35,003 nt of DNA, taken from IMG/VR virus record IMGVR_UViG_3300012447_000003, positions 1 through 35,003 of that record, one strand, 5' to 3'. The notes below the pieces were generated by a model that was not told where the DNA came from, did no database searches, and worked only from the letters and a program-made list of their open reading frames with translations. Made by a program: the position numbers and the translations under genes. Shown here in pieces: positions 3,445 to 10,661 of this stretch. The first letter of the stretch is position 1. Each line of letters begins with the position of its first letter. This DNA comes from a virus.

Positions 3445-3756
3445 ATGTGGCAGATCGACAAGACGATTCCCCTATCTGCACGCCGCTGGATCTACGGGAT
3501 CGCCACCGCTGTGATTCCGCTGCTCATCGCCTACGGTGTGGTCGATGATCAGACCGCCCCGCTGTGGGTGGCGTTGGTGGCTGCGGTGCTGGTTCCCGGT
3601 ATGGCGACGGCTGCGACGGTGCCGTCGAACGCCTCGGTGGTGGTCGAGCCATCCGATGATCCACAGCCAGAGGCTGTCGAGGATGGCCCTGCGGTGATCG
3701 ACGCGGAGGCGGCTCCACGCCGGGCGGCTGATCCAGATGTGGATGATCTGGCATGA
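3445..3756 (+). CDS. Holin (103 aa, two predicted TM helices)
   Basis: ATG 3445 lies 1 nt after the endolysin stop. Hydrophobic segments WIYGIATAVIPLLIAYGVV and PLWVALVAAVLVPGMATAA are followed by an acidic C-terminal tail. Confidence 0.65.
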   Translation: MWQIDKTIPLSARRWIYGIATAVIPLLIAYGVVDDQTAPLWVALVAAVLVPGMATAATVPSNASVVVEPSDDPQPEAVEDGPAVIDAEAAPRRAADPDVDDLA

Positions 3757-4838
3757 GCGAGCCGAAGCTCCCCTCAGAATACAAATTCGGTTTGGTGACG
3801 GCCCGGGCTATCCGGGCCGTCGGAGACATGGGGCCCGAGGATGACCCCTATCCTGACGGACCACCAGTCAAGCTTGCCAAAGCTGTGACGTTCACCCCGG
3901 CCGACCGGTGGCGTCTGGTGTCTGGTGACCCGTCACAGCGTGTCATCCAAGAGGCGATCGTCGCCGACTTCGACGCCGACGGATTCTTGAGCTTGCATGG
4001 CCAGGCCGGCCTGTGGCTGTATCACGGCCTGTGGCATGTGCGGTTTGCCGACGAGCTGGGCTGGGACGGCATCGACATTCAGGTCACCGCCGAGCACACC
4101 CAGGACCATCCGCTGGACCTGTGGACGGCGGCGGGATTTGTGCCCGCCCCATCAGTGACGGTGACGACCCTGCTGGTGCCTGCCACCGTGGCCGACGGGG
4201 ATGTGCTCATCCGTGAGGGCGATCACGTCACTGGTGTGCCCCAATCCACGTTCACCGGTCCTCCGGGTCCTCCCGGGCCACCGGGTCAGCCGTCGACATT
4301 CACCGGGGCGGGCAAGGGGCGACCGGACATGCCCGACACCCTCGACGCCGCCGGGCGCAGCTGGGTGGCATCTGCACCGGTGGGTGCCGTGTGGTGCTCC
4401 ACCGATGGCGCCGGGGTGGGGGCGTGGCAGTGGCAGAAACTGCCTTCCGGATGGAGCGTGTCGATGGGAGACACTGGGGTGGTCAACCAGACCAGCAGCC
4501 CGGCGTTCATCTCGGCACTCACGTCGCCGGACGGCACCCTGCAGCTGTCCTCCGATGCCTTGATCACGGCGCGGCGCATCGGCTCGCTGGTGATCCTCAA
4601 CACCACCCTGAAGCACACCCGGAACGTGTCGAGTGTGACCAGCACGGGGTGGCCCGCCGGCTGGCGACCCAGAATCGCGTTCTCCACGCCGGCGCTCACG
4701 GCGTCCAGCAGGGACGTGTGCCGACTTTTCCTCAACTCTGGTGGCAACCGCTCATCCATGACTGGTGATGTCGTGGACAATCTGGAGGTGCATGCGGTGT
4801 TCGACACGGATGATCCGTGGCCGACCAGCCTCACATGA
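3753..4838 (+). CDS. Collagen-like repeat protein (Gly-Pro-Pro triplets PPGPPGPPGQP) with distinct N- and C-terminal domains; possible tail fibre or host-recognition protein
   Basis: ATGA overlap with holin stop. GPPGPPGPPGQP at nt ~4255..4290. Followed by a rho-independent terminator. Confidence 0.6.
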   Translation: MSEPKLPSEYKFGLVTARAIRAVGDMGPEDDPYPDGPPVKLAKAVTFTPADRWRLVSGDPSQRVIQEAIVADFDADGFLSLHGQAGLWLYHGLWHVRFADELGWDGIDIQVTAEHTQDHPLDLWTAAGFVPAPSVTVTTLLVPATVADGDVLIREGDHVTGVPQSTFTGPPGPPGPPGQPSTFTGAGKGRPDMPDTLDAAGRSWVASAPVGAVWCSTDGAGVGAWQWQKLPSGWSVSMGDTGVVNQTSSPAFISALTSPDGTLQLSSDALITARRIGSLVILNTTLKHTRNVSSVTSTGWPAGWRPRIAFSTPALTASSRDVCRLFLNSGGNRSSMTGDVVDNLEVHAVFDTDDPWPTSLT

Positions 4839-4867
4839 TTCCATGATCTCCTGTCGAGGATCACTCT

Positions 4868-4906
4868 CCCCCGGGATGCCCATTCGGGTGTTCCGGGGGC
4901 CTTTTC
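4868..4906 (+). terminator. Rho-independent terminator (stem cccccgg/ccggggg then ccttttcg)
   Basis: GC stem 4868..4874 pairs with 4893..4899 and is followed by a T-run. Located 30 nt after the stop at 4838. Confidence 0.7.
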
Positions 4907-4967
4907 GTGTCTCTGGGGGTGCGCCCCACTAGATCGCTCACTTCTTATGATCGTTTCTGGCAGTTGC

Positions 4968-4996
4968 TTGACACAGACTGCCAGGGGTGGCAGTAT
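4968..4996 (+). promoter_or_regulatory. Putative sigma70/sigA-like promoter for the accessory cassette (-35 TTGACA 4968..4973, 17-bp spacer, -10 CAGTAT 4991..4996)
   Basis: Perfect -35 hexamer and a spacing-compliant -10 with conserved A2/T6. Lies between the terminator and the RBS AAGGA (5057..5061). Confidence 0.35.
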
Positions 4997-5069
4997 TAGT
5001 CATGTCAACAGAACAAAGCCCCCGCGAGGCGGCCACCTCCGGGGGATGGACAGAGAAAGGACCTCTGAC

Positions 5070-5495
5070 ATGACCAAGAATAACACCTACGCCTTCCGCG
5101 ACCACGCCATCGAGTGCGAGATCATCGAGCCGATCGAGGCATCCGGGGTCATCCCTGACGCCCGCGCCCAGTTCGACGTCGACGCCATCGCCGACGAGGT
5201 CATCAGCGGCTACTATGACGGATTCGCCTGCAAGGTCGATGAGGAGCGCTTCTGGGAGATCGTGGAAGCCCACGAGATCGCCGATGGTGATCATCGGATC
5301 ATCTGGGGTGGACCAGACGACGACGGAATCCAGACTGCACGGCTGATGCGATGGAGCGACAACGAGGACGGCTTCATCGAAATCGACTCCGAGACGATCG
5401 TGAGCAGTGAGGAGGAATCCCCCTACGCCATCGCCGAGACCACCTTGGAGGCACGCAACGGCCTTCACGATGTGACCAGCATCTGGTGCCGCTGA
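5070..5495 (+). CDS. Highly acidic hypothetical protein (141 aa; alternative starts 5046 or 4947), first gene of the accessory cassette
   Basis: RBS agagaaagga sits 8 nt upstream of ATG 5070. The ORF-track start 4947 lies upstream of the predicted promoter. The protein is very rich in Asp/Glu; no domain recognised. Confidence 0.5.
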   Translation: MTKNNTYAFRDHAIECEIIEPIEASGVIPDARAQFDVDAIADEVISGYYDGFACKVDEERFWEIVEAHEIADGDHRIIWGGPDDDGIQTARLMRWSDNEDGFIEIDSETIVSSEEESPYAIAETTLEARNGLHDVTSIWCR

Positions 5496-5509
5496 CCACA
5501 ACAACTACA

Positions 5510-5533
5510 GAGGGGCCGCCATGGCGGCCCCTC
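5510..5533. promoter_or_regulatory. Perfect 24-bp palindrome GAGGGGCCGCCATGGCGGCCCCTC between the two cassette genes (intercistronic hairpin or operator)
   Basis: The reverse complement is identical to the forward sequence. Lies 15 nt after the stop at 5495 and 22 nt before ATG 5556. Confidence 0.8.
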
Positions 5534-5555
5534 ATCGACAGAGAGGAATCGAATC

Positions 5556-6005
5556 ATGGCTCGACCTGTCATCCATGCAGCCATCCCCGAGGAGCTGGCC
5601 GATTGGATCACCCGCCGCGAGGAGCTGAGGCAGGGCCCCCAACCCCTGTCGCGGGCATCCGTCTCGGAGCTGCAAACCTTCCACGACATCATGACCGCCG
5701 AGCTCACCCGCCACCGCTGGAGTCTGGCAGAGCTGGAGATCATCGCCCGATCCACGATGGGAACCCCGCCCGGCCCCGGCGTGCCAACCACCGTTGGTGC
5801 GATGTTCGCGGCGGTCTACGACGCACGCCGCCTGGGAGAGGTGGCCGACGACGAAGCCACGGCGGCGCTGCTGGACAAGCTTGGTGGGCTGTCACCAGCC
5901 GGTGACGTGGCCTTGGAATATGCGGTGGCCGCGTGGTGGAGCGATGACCACCAGAACACGGCCGCCGACTGGGCCACCGTCGGAATCATCGTCACCAACG
6001 ACTGA
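5556..6005 (+). CDS. Hypothetical protein (149 aa), second gene of the accessory cassette
   Basis: RBS gagagga sits 8 nt upstream of ATG 5556. No recognisable domain. Followed directly by a terminator. Confidence 0.5.
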   Translation: MARPVIHAAIPEELADWITRREELRQGPQPLSRASVSELQTFHDIMTAELTRHRWSLAELEIIARSTMGTPPGPGVPTTVGAMFAAVYDARRLGEVADDEATAALLDKLGGLSPAGDVALEYAVAAWWSDDHQNTAADWATVGIIVTND

Positions 6006-6018
6006 CCCAGCCACATGA

Positions 6019-6055
6019 CCCCCCGGAGCAGCCTTGGCGTCCGGGGGCCTTTTCG
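6019..6055 (+). terminator. Rho-independent terminator (stem ccccccgga/tccggggg then cctttt); its 3' tail is identical to that of the terminator at 4868..4906
   Basis: GC stem 6019..6027 pairs with 6040..6047, followed by a T-run. The 21-mer ggggccttttcgtgtctctgg occurs both here and at 4895..4915. Confidence 0.7.
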
Positions 6056-6077
6056 TGTCTCTGGAGGCAGTTTCACC

Positions 6078-6336
6078 GGTGTCAGATGTTCTACCAATGT
6101 TCTACCGATTTTTCAGTGACCGGTGTTTGCCCTAGTCAAATGGGCATAAAAAGCTCCCCCGACTGGACTCGAACCATCAACATACGGGATACCGAGGATG
6201 TATCGCGATCCCCTGCCTGACTAGGAGAAATGCTCTCTGACTAGGGGTGATGCGGCACGTCTCGGGAATCCCACGGCAGTGAACGAGGGGAACAAAGTGA
6301 CTAGAATGGTGTCAGATGTTCTACCAATGTTCTACC
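6078..6336. other. Putative attP: two perfect 29-bp direct repeats (6078..6106 and 6308..6336), each holding two ATGTTCTACC motifs, flanking a core with a tRNA T-arm-like fragment (minus-strand GGTTCGAGTCC, ~6163..6173)
   Basis: ggtgtcagatgttctaccaatgttctacc occurs twice, 230 bp apart and immediately upstream of the integrase. TGACTAG motifs at 6131, 6228, 6239 and 6299. A GGTTCGAGTCC(AGT)CGGGGGAG 3'-tRNA-like segment lies on the minus strand. Confidence 0.5.
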
Positions 6337-6349
6337 AACCCGGGGTGCA

Positions 6350-7690
6350 ATGAGCCGAACCAGAACTTTCCGACGCCGCTCCACCATCGGAGCCATCTGG
6401 AAGCATCGCGAACGATGGGCAGCCAAATACAAACGCAACGGCGTCTGGCACACCCCGGGTCACACCTTCACCACGGCAAAGCTGGCAGACGACTGGCTGT
6501 GTGACGAGCAACGCCTCATTGACCGTGACGAGTGGACACCACCAGCCGATCGCAGACACACCACCCGGATCGACTCGACCACCTTCCGAGACTATGCGTC
6601 GCGCTGGATCGACACTCGCCTCAAGAAAGGCCAGCCGCTCGCAGAGGCGACGAAACACGAATACCGCCGCTACCTCAAAAACTACGTTGGTGACATCGGC
6701 GACGAACCGCTGGCAGGCACCACACGCAACGACTGGCGCGAATGGTACAGCAAGCTGTGCCCAGACAAACCCGTCCAACGAGCACGCGTCTACGCCTTCG
6801 TGTGCTCCGTGCTCACCTCGGCCGTGGATGACGAGCTGATCCCTGCCAGCCCCCTGAAAATCCGGGGCGCCTCCCGGGCGGTCAGCGACAAAACCAACCT
6901 ACGACTCCCCACCGCCGCCGAGATCGACACCATCGCCGACCACATGCCACCCGACACCAAGCTTGCCGTGCTGCTGGCCGCATGGTGTGGTCTGCGCGCC
7001 GGCGAGATCATTGCCCTGCAGCGCCGCGACATTGATCTTGATGCCCCGTCGGTGACCGTGGCCCGGGCCGCCTCCCGCGCCGGGGCACAGTGGATCGTCA
7101 AGGCACCCAAATCCGAGGCAGGACGGCGCATCGTCCCCATGCCCGGTTTCCTCGTCGCCGAGGCTAGGCAGCATCTTGACCGCTGGACTGGTCCACGACG
7201 GGATGACTGGGTCTTCCCTGCCGACGATGGCGGCATGCGCACCCATGCCGGGCTGATCGGCACCCGAGGCGGACGCTACAAGGACGGCCGTCCGAAATAT
7301 CCCACCCGCTACTGCAAGGCCATCGAGGACGCCGGCCTGCCGTGGGTGACGTTCCACATGCTGCGGCACTTCTTCGGCACACAGGTGACATGGCAGGGCG
7401 CAGGACCCAAGGACGCCATGACGTTGATGGGCCAATCGACGATGTCCGCGTGGCAGCGCTACCAGCACACCGACCCCGCAAGGCAGAGGCAGCTGGCCGC
7501 CGCCCTGGACCAGCTGCACACCGGCGACACCACTGCTGCCCCGGAGTTTTCGGGTGACCTGCTGGGGCGTCTCACACCCGGCCAGATCGCCGCCATGATC
7601 GACACCCTCAGCGACGACGAGGCCGCCGAACTTCTGTCCGGCCTGCCACCGGAACGCCTCGCAGACATTTGGCGAGCCAGACGCTCATAA
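6350..7690 (+). CDS. int: Tyrosine recombinase / phage integrase (446 aa)
   Basis: N-terminal arm-binding and SAM-like domains. Catalytic-region motifs ...GLRAGEI..., HMLRHFF and WQRYQH (nucleophile Tyr). Adjacent to attP repeats. Confidence 0.85.
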   Translation: MSRTRTFRRRSTIGAIWKHRERWAAKYKRNGVWHTPGHTFTTAKLADDWLCDEQRLIDRDEWTPPADRRHTTRIDSTTFRDYASRWIDTRLKKGQPLAEATKHEYRRYLKNYVGDIGDEPLAGTTRNDWREWYSKLCPDKPVQRARVYAFVCSVLTSAVDDELIPASPLKIRGASRAVSDKTNLRLPTAAEIDTIADHMPPDTKLAVLLAAWCGLRAGEIIALQRRDIDLDAPSVTVARAASRAGAQWIVKAPKSEAGRRIVPMPGFLVAEARQHLDRWTGPRRDDWVFPADDGGMRTHAGLIGTRGGRYKDGRPKYPTRYCKAIEDAGLPWVTFHMLRHFFGTQVTWQGAGPKDAMTLMGQSTMSAWQRYQHTDPARQRQLAAALDQLHTGDTTAAPEFSGDLLGRLTPGQIAAMIDTLSDDEAAELLSGLPPERLADIWRARRS

Positions 7691-7868: not shown

Positions 7869-8183
7869 CTATTTGGCGCGGGGCTTCGCCACCGACCAGC
7901 CGGCCACAACACCAAGAACAATGGCAGCCACACCCAAAACCGCCACGAGCCACATACTCGCCGATGAGATGAGATAAATCCCCATGGCACAGCAGACGAT
8001 CAGGATGGCCAGGCCACCTATGGCACGTCCGGTGCGCTCGGTGCTGTCCATGTCGATGTCTTTGCCCTTGCGAATCATGTCCTCGATTTCGATTCGCCTT
8101 GAGTCGTATTCATGCTGGTCAATGTTGCCGCTGGCAAGCTGCTGGTCGAGGTTGGCTAGCATTTCTGATCCGATACGTTTCAT
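7869..8183 (-). CDS. Small membrane protein: SHOCT-like N-terminal segment plus two TM helices (104 aa); candidate superinfection-exclusion or lysogeny-maintenance factor
   Basis: RBS AAGGA sits 7 nt upstream of the ATG on the minus strand. Segment LANLDQQLASGNIDQHEYDSRRIEIEDMIRKG resembles the short SHOCT oligomerisation motif. Hydrophobic segments LAILIVCCAMGIYLI and WLVAVLGVAAIVLGVVAGW. Last gene of the repressor operon. Confidence 0.55.
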   Translation of the reverse strand: MKRIGSEMLANLDQQLASGNIDQHEYDSRRIEIEDMIRKGKDIDMDSTERTGRAIGGLAILIVCCAMGIYLISSASMWLVAVLGVAAIVLGVVAGWSVAKPRAK

Positions 8184-8202
8184 GTCAGGTCCTTAGTGGT
8201 GA

Positions 8203-8604
8203 TCAGGCTGGTATTTGGTTGAGCATGGCGCGTTCATCGTCAGCCAGTGTGGTGAGTCGGTCAGTGAGGACATCCTCGGTGACCCACAGCTCATCGGAGG
8301 CGGTGGCCATATCGACACCACCAGCCAAGACCGATGCCACCGCGTCGATGTCGGGCAGAAGACGCCGGGCTGTCACGTCACGGACACGCTGCTCGGATGC
8401 CCACGTCACATCAGACACCAGACCCAGGTCGATGTGGACGAGTTCGTGGGCAAGGGTGCAGCGGCGCTCCCGGACAGTGAGGCCGGTGGCGATCCAGATT
8501 CGATGCCCGTCGGTGGCACCCAGCTGTCCTGGTGGCAGGCCGCCCCAGCACAGGTCGAGTTGGGGCCGGGAGGTGAGGTCCGCCCACGGGTTAGGCAGGA
8601 TCAT
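8203..8604 (-). CDS. ImmA/IrrE-family zinc metallopeptidase (HEXXH: HELVHIDLG), 133 aa from ATG 8604; the ORF-track N-terminal extension to 8838 overlaps the repressor and is rejected
   Basis: HELVH motif typical of the COG2856 / ImmA anti-repressor protease family. Overlaps the 3' end of the XRE repressor gene by 14 nt, as in ImmR-ImmA pairs. Confidence 0.65.
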   Translation of the reverse strand: MILPNPWADLTSRPQLDLCWGGLPPGQLGATDGHRIWIATGLTVRERRCTLAHELVHIDLGLVSDVTWASEQRVRDVTARRLLPDIDAVASVLAGGVDMATASDELWVTEDVLTDRLTTLADDERAMLNQIPA

Positions 8605-8956
8605 CGCCCCACTCCTTCTCTTGGAGTTCCCGTTCGGTGGGATGGTCGACACGGTAGGCGGCGGCGTTTTCGGGTGCGGGCGGCGTCGGGTCACGAAGAC
8701 GACGGATATTCGACGGTTGTTCCGTGCTCTGCCGTCCCATGATTCGCTCGGCATCCTCAACGATCTCGTGGGGGGCCACATCGAGCACCTTGGCAATGTC
8801 GGCAACCTGTGTGACCTTGATGTCACGTTGCGCACCAAGGATGCGCATCAGCGTCGATAGGGGCACACCGGACTGCTCGGATAGCTCACGCACGGTATGC
8901 CCGGAGACGGCGCGCTGCGCTCTGATAGCGGCTGCGACGGCCTCGTTAATGTCCAT
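8591..8956 (-). CDS. XRE-family HTH transcriptional repressor (cI-like), 121 aa from ATG 8956 (MDINEAVAAAIRAQRAVSGHTVRELSEQSGVPLSTLMRILG...)
   Basis: Canonical HTH_XRE segment. Divergent from the cro-like gene. The in-frame upstream extension to 9064 lacks support. Confidence 0.75.
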   Translation of the reverse strand: MDINEAVAAAIRAQRAVSGHTVRELSEQSGVPLSTLMRILGAQRDIKVTQVADIAKVLDVAPHEIVEDAERIMGRQSTEQPSNIRRLRDPTPPAPENAAAYRVDHPTERELQEKEWGDDPA

Positions 8957-9311: not shown

Positions 9312-10102
9312 CCAGTAACATTCAGCCATTTACCCACGACAAGTTCGGAACCATCCGCACCGTAACGGACGAATCCGGAACAATTTGGTTCGTCGCCACG
9401 GACATCTGCGCCGCCCTTGACCTGTCCAACACCACTGTTACGATGCGGCGCTTGGATGCGGATGAGAAGTCTAAGTTCAACTTAGGTCTTCAAGGAGACG
9501 CATGGCGCGTCAACGAGGCGGGCCTCTACAGGCTTGTCCTCACCTCTCGCAAACCAAAAGCCAAGTCCTTCAAACGTTGGGGGACGCACGAGGTTCTCCC
9601 CTCGATTCGCAAGCACGGCGGCTATCTCACCGATCAGAAGATCGAGGACATCCTCGACAACCCGGACACGATCATCCAGCTGGCCACCAAGTTGAAGTCC
9701 GAACGTGCTAAGCGCGCCGCCTTGGAGGAGCAGGCCGCCATCGACACCCCAAAGGCCAGATTCGCCGATGCCGTGTCCGCATCACACACATCCATCCTCA
9801 TAGGGGACCTGGCGAAACTGCTACGTCAGAACGGCTACGAGATCGGCCAGAACAGGCTGTTCGAAATGCTGCGACGCGACGGCTACCTGTGCAGCGCCAA
9901 GGGAGGCATGTGGAACATGCCCACCCCGAAAGCCATGAATCTTGGCCTGTTCGAGGTGGAGGAAACCACCATCGTGCATTCCGACGGCCACGTGTCGATC
10001 TCGAAAACCACCAAGGTCACGGGAAAGGGTCAGGTGTATTTCGTCACCCGCTTCCTGGACGGTCGACTTCCCAAAGGCATCAACGACGAGGAGGCGGCAT
10101 GA
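9308..10102 (+). CDS. Phage antirepressor, Bro-N N-terminal domain plus KilA-C/ANT C-terminal domain (264 aa)
   Basis: Bro-N signature FGTIRTV..G.IWFVATDICAALDL. The C-terminal region matches the conserved antirepressor (ANT) domain. ATGA overlap with cro stop. Confidence 0.75.
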   Translation: MTSNIQPFTHDKFGTIRTVTDESGTIWFVATDICAALDLSNTTVTMRRLDADEKSKFNLGLQGDAWRVNEAGLYRLVLTSRKPKAKSFKRWGTHEVLPSIRKHGGYLTDQKIEDILDNPDTIIQLATKLKSERAKRAALEEQAAIDTPKARFADAVSASHTSILIGDLAKLLRQNGYEIGQNRLFEMLRRDGYLCSAKGGMWNMPTPKAMNLGLFEVEETTIVHSDGHVSISKTTKVTGKGQVYFVTRFLDGRLPKGINDEEAA

Positions 10103-10299
10103 ACCGCGAGGAAGCCACAAAAAGTTTCAATGCAGCATACGACTCCATCGACCGAGTGTTCAACGAGTTGTTTTTTAGATACGACAACCAGACTGCACAG
10201 GATGTCACCCACCTGCTGATCAGAGTCCTCGACCTCATCACACAGGCACGATCCATAATGGAGCGCGTCCCCGACGAAACATGGCAGGAGACGCCATGA
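10099..10299 (+). CDS. Hypothetical protein (66 aa)
   Basis: ATGA translational coupling. The hydrophobic/charged residue pattern looks like a folded protein rather than random sequence. Confidence 0.45.
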   Translation: MNREEATKSFNAAYDSIDRVFNELFFRYDNQTAQDVTHLLIRVLDLITQARSIMERVPDETWQETP

Positions 10300-10511
10300 A
10301 AACCAGAACACCAACCTTCGCCGAGGAGCTGGCCGACGAGTATGGCCGGTGGATGACCTACACCCAGGCGGCGAAAGAACTCAACTGCTCCGCACGCCAT
10401 CTGCGCCATTTGACGGAGCGTGGACAGCTGGCCTGCTGGACGATCGGTGACACGCAGGCGTTGAGGCTGAAGACCGCCGATGTGGCCGCCCTGATGAGGA
10501 GGGTCGCCTGA
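10296..10511 (+). CDS. HTH DNA-binding protein (excisionase/MerR-like HTH_17 fold), 71 aa
   Basis: ATGA overlap. Segment MTYTQAAKELNCSARHLRHLTERGQLACWTIG is typical of Xis-type HTH. Confidence 0.5.
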   Translation: MKTRTPTFAEELADEYGRWMTYTQAAKELNCSARHLRHLTERGQLACWTIGDTQALRLKTADVAALMRRVA

Positions 10512-10661
10512 CGTGCTTAACGGATACGCATCCGACATCGTGTTCGCCGTCGTGTGCCTTGTTGCTCTGGCTATCGCATTGAAGCACACCGACTGACCTG
10601 AAATCAAAACTGTTCATACCCCTACAGGGGTGCCTGTAGTGCACCCAAAAACGGAGAAACA

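Follow-up and report, generated by a model that had tools for sequence, protein, structure and literature searches.

A two-gene accessory operon beside attP of a Cutibacterium granulosum phage, tentatively read as an acr-aca-like anti-defense module

The DNA analyzed here, called the window throughout, is a 35,003-nucleotide (nt) stretch covering positions 1 to 35,003 of IMG/VR virus record IMGVR_UViG_3300012447_000003; it is a roughly 35-kb temperate Cutibacterium granulosum phage that integrates into tRNA-Asn. A cassette of two genes, A and B, lies between its late/lysis operon and its attachment site, attP. The left boundary is the intrinsic terminator of the late/lysis operon (4868..4906, + strand), identified by a terminator scan as a 14-bp stem (4868-4899) followed by a T-tract, and the cassette ends in an intrinsic terminator of its own (6020..6055, +) whose stem-loop and T-tract are conserved in relatives and in the integrated prophage L020. 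The inner stem (6031-6048) and T-tract of the right terminator come from the scan, which returned 8 terminator-like sites in 4 kb versus 2.0 expected, and its 8-bp outer stem (6020-6047) was read by eye. An earlier note on this DNA had described an accessory cassette that is self-contained, has a promoter and a terminator of its own, and is located beside attP at the prophage end. This description was confirmed: the terminators, the TTGACA hexamer, genes A and B, and the 24-bp palindrome that it listed are all present within a few bases of where it had placed them, and attP, whose core was verified by alignment to the attR of an integrated prophage, and the integrase are indeed next to the cassette.

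Gene A (5070-5495, +) encodes a soluble protein of 141 amino acids (aa) with a pI of 4.11 and a net charge of -24; its GC content at third codon positions (GC3) is 0.82. Gene B (5556-6005, +) encodes a 149-aa protein of pI 4.63 with a ribbon-helix-helix (RHH)-like N-terminus (residues ~4-52) and a predicted five-helix C-terminal domain (~57-140). Both genes exhibit a strong third-position GC bias. Position 5070 was taken as the start of gene A because the conserved promoter and leader occupy the 4947-5070 stretch, and because a Shine-Dalgarno sequence is located 8 nt before 5070 and all homologs begin with MT. An upstream in-frame ATG at 4947, which would give a protein of 182 aa, was rejected; GC3 drops to 0.61 upstream. 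Scans of A and B against Pfam, NCBIfam, and PADLOC returned no toxin or defense family and nothing above threshold, and no PADLOC defense model matched either protein at E values up to 1. The hidden Markov model (HMM) scans suggested by the earlier note thus show no recognizable domain above threshold in gene B. Profile searches of A against Protein Data Bank (PDB) sequences likewise gave no meaningful match.

The cassette promoter (4957..4998, +) consists of a -35 TTGACA (4970-4975), a 17-nt spacer, and an extended -10 element, TGGCAGTAT (4990-4998), that follows the pattern TGnCAGTAT. This layout is kept in 21 distinct variants from related loci, and a generic promoter scan of the window missed it. 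TGGCAGT half-sites are located within the promoter at 4958-4964 (+), 4977-4983 (-), and 4988-4994 (+); three of the eight TGGCAGT copies in the window thus fall inside one 37-bp span in the promoter. Two of the half-sites form a perfect inverted repeat, ACTGCCAggggTGGCAGT (4977-4994), which occurs nowhere else in the window and is positioned between the -35 and -10 elements. The inverted repeat and the TGGCAGT sites are a candidate operator, at which we infer that a protein binds. Repeats that overlap an operon's own promoter are among the features by which acr-aca operons are recognized; here they are present as a sequence feature only.

The 5′ leader is predicted to fold into two hairpins (minimum-free-energy fold, z = -2.95). 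Hairpin 1 (5019..5045, +) pairs CCCCCG.GAGG with CCUC.CGGGGG across a 6-nt loop, and its stem is invariant and its loop variable across 19 leaders. Hairpin 2 (5051..5067, +) holds the Shine-Dalgarno AAGGA (5057-5061) in its loop and ends 2 nt before the start codon, with compensatory changes at two stem pairs between variants (CAGAG/CTCTG versus CAGGA(A)/(T)TCCTG). Between the two genes, the perfect 24-bp palindrome (5510..5533, +) specifies a GC-rich RNA hairpin with no U-tract after it; its 10-bp stem lies in a 71-nt fold of -24.9 kcal/mol (z = -2.87). Relatives carry other GC-rich hairpin sequences at the position of the palindrome. The palindrome was therefore taken to be an RNA structure, and a function as a protein operator was rejected on the same grounds. 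The intercistronic hairpin is probably an mRNA stabilizer or a partial attenuator that sets the A:B ratio, raising A over B. An Rfam scan of 4800-6400 found nothing.

A 28-nt direct repeat is common to both terminators. The left copy, TCCGGGGGCCTTTTCGTGTCTCTGGGGG (4892..4919, +), comprises the 3′ half of the left terminator, its T-tract, and 12 further nt, and the right copy (6040..6067, +) was identified by a repeat search and by the junction in relatives; the two copies are 96% identical and spaced 1148 nt apart. Two IMG/VR relatives, L080 and L082, are without A and B. Their 361-aa late gene is 93-94% identical to that of the window and their integrases are 97% and 89% identical, respectively, and the order in both is the 361-aa gene, a single terminator, attP with the same arms, and the integrase. 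The single terminator is a hybrid: its left stem is that of the left terminator in the window and its right flank that of the right terminator. The endpoints of the gain or loss fall inside the 28-nt repeat. The hybrid terminator thus indicates that the gain or loss of a 1148-bp unit took place precisely inside the repeat.

The cassette is a discrete, dispensable, and optional accessory operon: it has its own promoter and terminator and is inserted between genes that are adjacent in relatives, which is the anatomy of a moron. Lambdoid morons, as defined by Hendrix and colleagues, are promoter-gene-terminator units inserted between conserved genes, and the cassette resembles them in its autonomous promoter and terminator, its location between two conserved genes, and its presence or absence among close relatives. 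It differs from them in being bracketed by the 28-nt terminator repeat and in that its first gene is itself swappable; "moron" here denotes anatomy, not function. Function aside, the locus is a clean case of gain and loss of an accessory operon through recombination between duplicated terminators.

The slot upstream of B was surveyed in loci from IMG/VR, GTDB genomes, and metagenomes. At least six sequence families occupy it, all preceded by the same conserved promoter and leader. Slot type 1 includes gene A, Orf25 of Propionibacterium freudenreichii phage PFR1, and truncated forms. The other occupants are a family of 106-109 aa beginning MTDHIIASNF, a family of 102-107 aa beginning MTENTNT, a 103-aa hybrid-like protein, a 113-aa protein in Acidipropionibacterium timonense, and a 202-aa protein, with a 79-aa basic protein as an occasional second gene. 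Every first slot gene encodes a protein with a pI of 4.05-4.2 and a net charge of -14 to -28, and B is 60-100% identical across loci with swapped slot occupants. A swappable small acidic gene upstream of a conserved gene, as found here, is another of the features that mark acr-aca operons. The same pattern recurs far off, with a 358-aa protein (net charge -56) before B in Brooklawnia and a 163-aa protein (net charge -25) before B in a Dermatophilaceae genome. Gene A is one occupant of this variable slot and encodes a candidate inhibitor of a host defense or nucleic-acid-binding protein.

A short N-terminal region with an FDxDAI motif, corresponding to window 5094-5204 in gene A, is common to several slot families. 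This region is also found inside gp75 of Mycobacterium phage Boilgate (L002 3992-4417), a full-length homolog located among early genes, and as a stand-alone 67-aa early gene in the oral Caudovirus D_HF5_3 (L110 2438-2641). The early-gene occurrence of the N-terminal module of A fits an infection-phase function better than prophage defense. Within the same region, gene A contains a 33-nt imperfect internal repeat (5094-5126 and 5172-5204).

Some loci contain more than one cassette or slot gene. Tandem double cassettes, with the promoter and leader repeated ahead of each unit, are present in L031 (2925-7301) and L028 (325, 2257). The first cassette of L031 contains a type-1 acidic gene and an intact B, and the second contains a type-2 acidic gene, a 65-aa B remnant generated by an internal deletion, and a further gene, C. 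These tandem cassettes of mixed types point to ongoing recombination between cassette types. The genome of A. timonense (L014/L015) carries two near-identical copies of the locus ~40 kb apart, one beside tRNA-Pro(TGG) and the other beside an integrase-like open reading frame (ORF), and in these loci two tandem acidic genes, a type 2-like gene and then the gene for the 113-aa protein, precede B.

B belongs to a large family. An HMMER scan of 1.84 billion representatives gave 252 clusters at 50% identity, mostly full-length (140-190 aa) and mostly from phages, prophages, and plasmid-like elements of Actinobacteria; in rare cases an RHH_1, HTH_7, or Endonuclease_7 domain is fused to the protein. 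Among close clusters in C. granulosum and C. avidum material there are 55 for B versus 14 for A. The N-termini of the family display an alternating strand, then P/D-x-x-L-x-x-W-L, and then a second helix. When a profile of 43 N-termini was searched against 177,635 PDB sequences, the RHH domain of NikR (query 5-54 versus chain 2-47) and a CopG-family protein were among the top four, with both matches in register. Comparison of the B N-termini with a hand-typed RHH alignment gave an hhalign P value of 2.7e-4 and a score of 20.5, and the maximum among 25 column-shuffled controls was 9.8. An AlphaFold2 (AF2) model of B contains helices at 12-26 and 33-51 followed by five more, which fits a strand-helix-helix start. 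The low predicted local distance difference test (pLDDT) values of the N-terminus in this model are as expected for a domain that would fold only as a dimer. From the profile matches and the model, B looks like an RHH-like regulator and is a probable DNA-binding protein. When the B family was searched as a profile against all PDB sequences, no meaningful match was obtained, and the AcrIE10 entry 8JI9 was not returned. DUF6197, which matched one of 27 close and one of 66 distant members of the family, in both sets only the B of the window, below threshold (19.2 bits versus a cut-off of 24.6), was rejected as a chance hit.

In two distant contexts a B-family gene is positioned near a homolog of a known anti-CRISPR (Acr) protein, identified in each case by phmmer against PDB sequences. 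In the low-GC contig L074, the 3′ end of an integrase gene is followed by a promoter, a 157-aa acidic gene, and, after 1 nt, the B-family member P0146. The 157-aa protein is a full-length homolog of AcrIF11, an experimentally characterized anti-CRISPR ADP-ribosyltransferase (E = 6e-19 to 8DWQ, AcrIF11_Pae2; 3e-5 to 6KYF, AcrF11). In the promoter (L074 400-470), three perfect tandem 10-bp TGTTTACAAC repeats abut TGTTATATAAT, which contains the -10 TATAAT; the arrangement looks like an operator pattern for an RHH protein that binds direct repeats. In L101, an operon-like cluster consists of an 80-aa acidic gene followed by the B-family member P0180 and two genes, the second of which encodes a homolog of AcrVA2 (E = 5e-13 to 7CI1). 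A marker gene beside relatives of validated Acr proteins is thus found in two of ~12 distant contexts of B, and in some distant contexts a hyperacidic gene precedes B and gene C comes after it.

Gene C (phrog_15934, 295-340 aa) follows B in C. avidum-type phages, PFR1, Brooklawnia, and a Dermatophilaceae prophage; copies are located at L022 1582-2550, L021 1982-2956, L001 5443-6330, L075 5490-6440, and L076 5446-6336. Its product has a pI of 7.2-11, is basic in most cases, and ends in the invariant C-terminal motif VRGHWxxQxxGP...GP...VxVWRR. Searches of Pfam and profile searches against PDB sequences revealed no relative of C. The VRGHW segment bears a faint likeness to the RRAHWH C-terminus of the AcrVA2 homolog in L101, which was discarded as not significant (hhalign P = 0.16). 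The window is without gene C.

The cassette also persists in decayed form. C. avidum chromosomes, including that of ATCC 25577 (L009/L013 ~9314-10520), contain a decayed prophage end at tRNA-Ala(CGC) in which A is cut to ~50 aa, B is intact, and C is cut to 24 aa. The promoter region, with a degenerate -10, and the leader are kept, and a low-GC island with an HNH-motif ORF follows. The B sequence of this locus is present in at least 24 assemblies.

We favor the interpretation that the cassette is an acr-aca-like anti-defense operon rather than a toxin-antitoxin or effector-immunity pair, and hold it tentatively, with a confidence somewhat short of even. What the sequences themselves demonstrate is the anatomy and dispensability of the cassette, the variability of the slot, the size of the B family, and the neighborhood links to homologs of AcrIF11 and AcrVA2. 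The cassette would be transcribed by host RNA polymerase from its strong sigma-70-type, extended -10 promoter. Since such a promoter would need no phage factor, expression would be expected on phage entry and probably also from the prophage; this timing, like the target of A and DNA binding and autorepression by B, we infer from the features described above. The small, extremely acidic slot protein, here the product of gene A, would bind and block a component of host defense. A dimeric RHH protein B would bind the TGGCAGT inverted and direct repeats over the -35 and -10 elements and repress its own operon in the manner of an Aca protein. The leader hairpin and the hairpin holding the ribosome-binding site may shape translation of the first gene, the stable intercistronic hairpin may favor the first gene over B, and the unit as a whole would be gained or lost by recombination between the two terminator copies.

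This interpretation keeps one part of what the earlier note had offered and sets aside others. Among the kinds of cargo that it named, anti-defense is favored by the evidence and a toxin-antitoxin-like system is not supported. Gene B, which it had regarded as a possible effector, resembles an RHH regulator instead. Its picture of A and B as an immunity or mimic protein with an effector, or as a toxin-antitoxin-like pair, did not hold up, as mostly unrelated acidic proteins replace A; nor did a fixed pairing of the two genes, as B alone survives in the decayed C. avidum prophage. A toxin or defense identity found no backing among the Pfam, NCBIfam, and PADLOC families.

In classical acr-aca loci, a single strong promoter drives small acidic inhibitor genes that are exchanged rapidly, and the conserved autorepressor gene after them serves as a marker. 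The Listeria prophage acrIIA1 locus is positioned downstream of the lysin gene, where the late/lysis region finishes close to the prophage end. The cassette resembles the Pseudomonas acr-aca1 and Listeria acrIIA1 loci in its acidic slot, strong promoter, and conserved second gene and, for Listeria, in its location at the end of the late region. It differs from the classical loci in several respects: known Aca proteins are nearly all helix-turn-helix proteins, whereas B is RHH-like; many relatives contain gene C after the regulator; and the cassette has conserved leader and intercistronic RNA hairpins.

A possible architectural parallel to B is provided by the acrIE9.2-acrIE10 operon of Klebsiella pneumoniae plasmids, in which AcrIE10 is a bifunctional RHH Acr-Aca protein whose architecture is like that predicted for B. 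AcrIE10, encoded downstream of acrIE9.2, consists of an N-terminal RHH and a five-helix Acr domain; it represses its operon via an inverted repeat over the -35 and -10 elements, and Cas7 binding relieves the repression (PMC11317147; PMC13530269). The predicted match is a good lead, not proof of homology. B has no detectable sequence similarity to AcrIE10, its fold match was not confirmed by Foldseek, it is 149 aa long versus 114 in the crystallized AcrIE10 chain, and the slot gene is unrelated to AcrIE9. The cassette is phage-borne, whereas acrIE9.2-acrIE10 is plasmid-borne, and binding of B to Cas7 and to DNA is only putative. By analogy with AcrIE10, the B family could be a large, unannotated RHH "Aca-like" family whose five-helix domain acts as a sensor or second inhibitor, binding for example type I-E Cas7 and so lifting repression, an extension that we regard as quite unlikely.

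The module is also found on a conjugative element. The homologs of C, B, and A in PFR1 are genes 23-25, and the putative conjugative plasmid or integrative and conjugative element (ICE) pJS25 of P. freudenreichii is reported to contain an 88%-identical copy of them (PMC5644110). This link comes from that report alone, as a tblastn search of PFR1 Orf24 against PLSDB plasmids returned no match. CRISPR "self-immunity" has been reported for the PFR1-like prophage PJS7 and for pJS25, both of which coexist with spacers against themselves, and a BLAST search for anti-CRISPRs by the same authors found none (PMC5644110). A module common to a phage and a conjugative element fits anti-defense cargo better than a phage life-cycle function. 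An inhibitor module of this kind might account for the survival of PFR1-like prophages and a conjugative element in strains with CRISPR arrays that target them.

Several observations weigh against an acr-aca-like operon. PDB profile searches showed no sequence similarity of A or B to a validated Acr or Aca protein. Known Acr homologs are present in only two of the ~12 distant B contexts, others containing a DEAD-box helicase or runs of small genes, and the conserved ~300-aa basic gene C after B in most lineages is not explained by the acr-aca picture. The operator-like repeats are inverted in C. granulosum phages and direct in C. avidum-type promoters. The RHH assignment is itself below the usual thresholds for sequence signals: the PDB E values of the RHH matches are only 0.55-0.67, the hhalign probability is 42%, and no B-family N-terminus matched the Pfam RHH model when isolated N-termini were scanned, the single RHH_1 match in the family being a separate domain of the fusion protein P0205. 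The B model is mediocre (pLDDT 68.5 overall and 36-53 in the N-terminus, with one of five models above 51), and a Foldseek search of it against the PDB found nothing and did not recover AcrIE10. B is acidic overall, with few basic residues in the putative recognition strand of Cutibacterium members. Finally, self-targeting in JS7 was ascribed by the authors who reported it to a possibly inactive CRISPR system (PMC5644110).

The foremost alternative, which we consider unlikely, is that the cassette is a prophage defense or superinfection-exclusion system that is expressed in the lysogen and shields the host against other phages. A location beside attR at the prophage end, together with a host-type promoter and terminator of its own, would suit such a function, and like defense cargo the cassette is variable and dispensable; a benefit to the host could also explain the persistence of an intact B and promoter region in the decayed C. 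avidum prophage of many assemblies. However, no PADLOC, Pfam, or NCBIfam defense family was found among A and B, which are without a membrane segment, nuclease, or ATPase domain and represent small acidic soluble proteins and a regulator-like protein. The neighbors of B with known relatives are anti-defense proteins (AcrIF11 and AcrVA2), not defense proteins, and the N-terminal module of A is found among early genes of other phages. Prophage-mediated defense cargo located between the lysis cassette and the integrase was reportedly described by Dedrick and colleagues in 2017 for Cluster N and other mycobacteriophages. The cassette resembles that cargo in occupying the same niche in temperate actinobacteriophages and in its variable content, but nothing in it is similar to the Cluster N systems, which are lysogeny-expressed defenses made up of enzymes or membrane proteins.

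Somewhat less probable still is a general host-takeover or regulatory module, in which the acidic proteins mimic nucleic acid or bind nucleoid, RNA polymerase, or repair proteins and B is a transcription factor. The extreme acidity of all first-slot proteins agrees with this possibility, as do the FDxDAI motif that links several slot families and has stand-alone copies in early regions, and the heterogeneous contexts of the B family, which include helicase and small-gene operons. Core takeover functions, however, are rarely optional among near-identical phages and rarely common to a phage and a conjugative plasmid-like element, and the only neighbors with known functions are anti-CRISPRs.

A toxin-antitoxin or addiction module, with B as RHH antitoxin and autorepressor and with A, or gene C in relatives, as the toxin, is improbable. 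Type II antitoxins typically begin with an RHH domain, C is tightly coupled to B in phages of the C. avidum type (4-nt gap) and adjacent to it in PFR1, the C. avidum remnant with truncated A and C and an intact B looks like an orphan antitoxin, and the module is also on a plasmid-like element. On the other hand, no toxin family matches A or C, and the window lacks C altogether. The strongly acidic A gives way to unrelated proteins while the C-terminal domain of B stays conserved, a pattern incompatible with specific neutralization of A. Close relatives live without the cassette, and the C-terminal part of B is modeled as a folded five-helix domain rather than a short, disordered tail for toxin binding.

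An accessory factor for integration or excision (recombination directionality factor) is the most improbable of the alternatives: the module does adjoin attP or the integrase in the window, L021-type phages, PFR1, L074, L076, and L108, and small DNA-binding proteins are often excisionases, but phage groups differ in how it is arranged with respect to the integrase and attP, the early operon contains an HTH_17 excisionase-like gene apart from the cassette, and an excisionase role was rejected since a cassette-free phage keeps a 97%-identical integrase and the same attP arms, so that the cassette is not needed for integration or excision.

If B did act in the AcrIE10-like manner that we regard as quite unlikely, the acidic slot proteins, gene C, and the two leader RNA hairpins would constitute a new regulated anti-defense module, and B would be a marker gene for systematic discovery of anti-CRISPR and anti-restriction proteins across Actinobacteria. 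A conserved marker behind a swappable slot would yield several candidate inhibitor families at once, together with a handle for searches across Actinobacteria. To our knowledge, almost no anti-CRISPR or anti-restriction proteins are known in Actinobacteria, and we know of few or none described for Cutibacterium and Propionibacterium; a literature search for these two genera found no validated anti-CRISPR. Type I-E CRISPR-Cas is common in these hosts; in C. granulosum, 19 of 30 genomes carry it (PMC10832045). Phage therapy of the skin microbiome is aimed at such hosts, and P. freudenreichii serves as a dairy starter.

The product of gene A is 100% identical to an NCBI hypothetical protein from C. 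granulosum. Many metagenomic contigs of ~35-36 kb also contain gene A, and their layout is that of a complete temperate siphovirus: tape measure, tail genes, Amidase_2 endolysin, holin, the 361-aa gene, the cassette, attP, and the tyrosine integrase (window 6350-7690), followed beyond the integrase by a leftward repressor region and then early genes (Bro/ANT, HTH_17 excisionase-like, WhiB, and YqaJ/SSB). A megablast search of the cassette against 50,697 GenBank phage records gave no match; the nearest isolated phages with homologous genes are PFR1, PFR2, and G4 of P. freudenreichii.

The attP region (6078..6336), which flanks the cassette, contains two identical 29-nt arm repeats (6078-6106 and 6308-6336), each with a tandem ATGTTCTACC inside. 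The integrated prophage L020 is homologous to the window over gene B, the terminator, and the arm repeat as far as 6176, where homology stops, and the L020 sequence past the attR match runs into a tRNA-Asn(GTT) gene (L020 6597-6670). The attP core (6153-6176, minus strand) is therefore the last 24 nt of tRNA-Asn(GTT), and the gene order in the lysogen is therefore late genes, A, B, terminator, attR, and a convergent tRNA-Asn, with the cassette last before attR. Repeats of CTGACTAGG(A/G)G are also located within the attP region (6217-6253).

The 361-aa gene (3753-4838) is the final gene of the late operon and follows the holin, an unusual place. It has weak PHROG matches to minor tail proteins, and relatives contain a collagen-like GPRGARGEPGPPGQP stretch; homologs are found in C. 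avidum and Acidipropionibacterium phages, and a PADLOC scan of its product gave no family at E values up to 1. Phages with identical cassettes have two different immunity regions. The region in L003/L005/L008 (12663-15336) contains a Peptidase_M78 gene, a 126-aa gene, a gene for an Ltp-like lipoprotein (a superinfection-exclusion type family), and an HTH_3 repressor gene, and the window-type region (7869-8956) contains genes of 104 aa and 133 aa and a gene for a 121-aa HTH_31 repressor.

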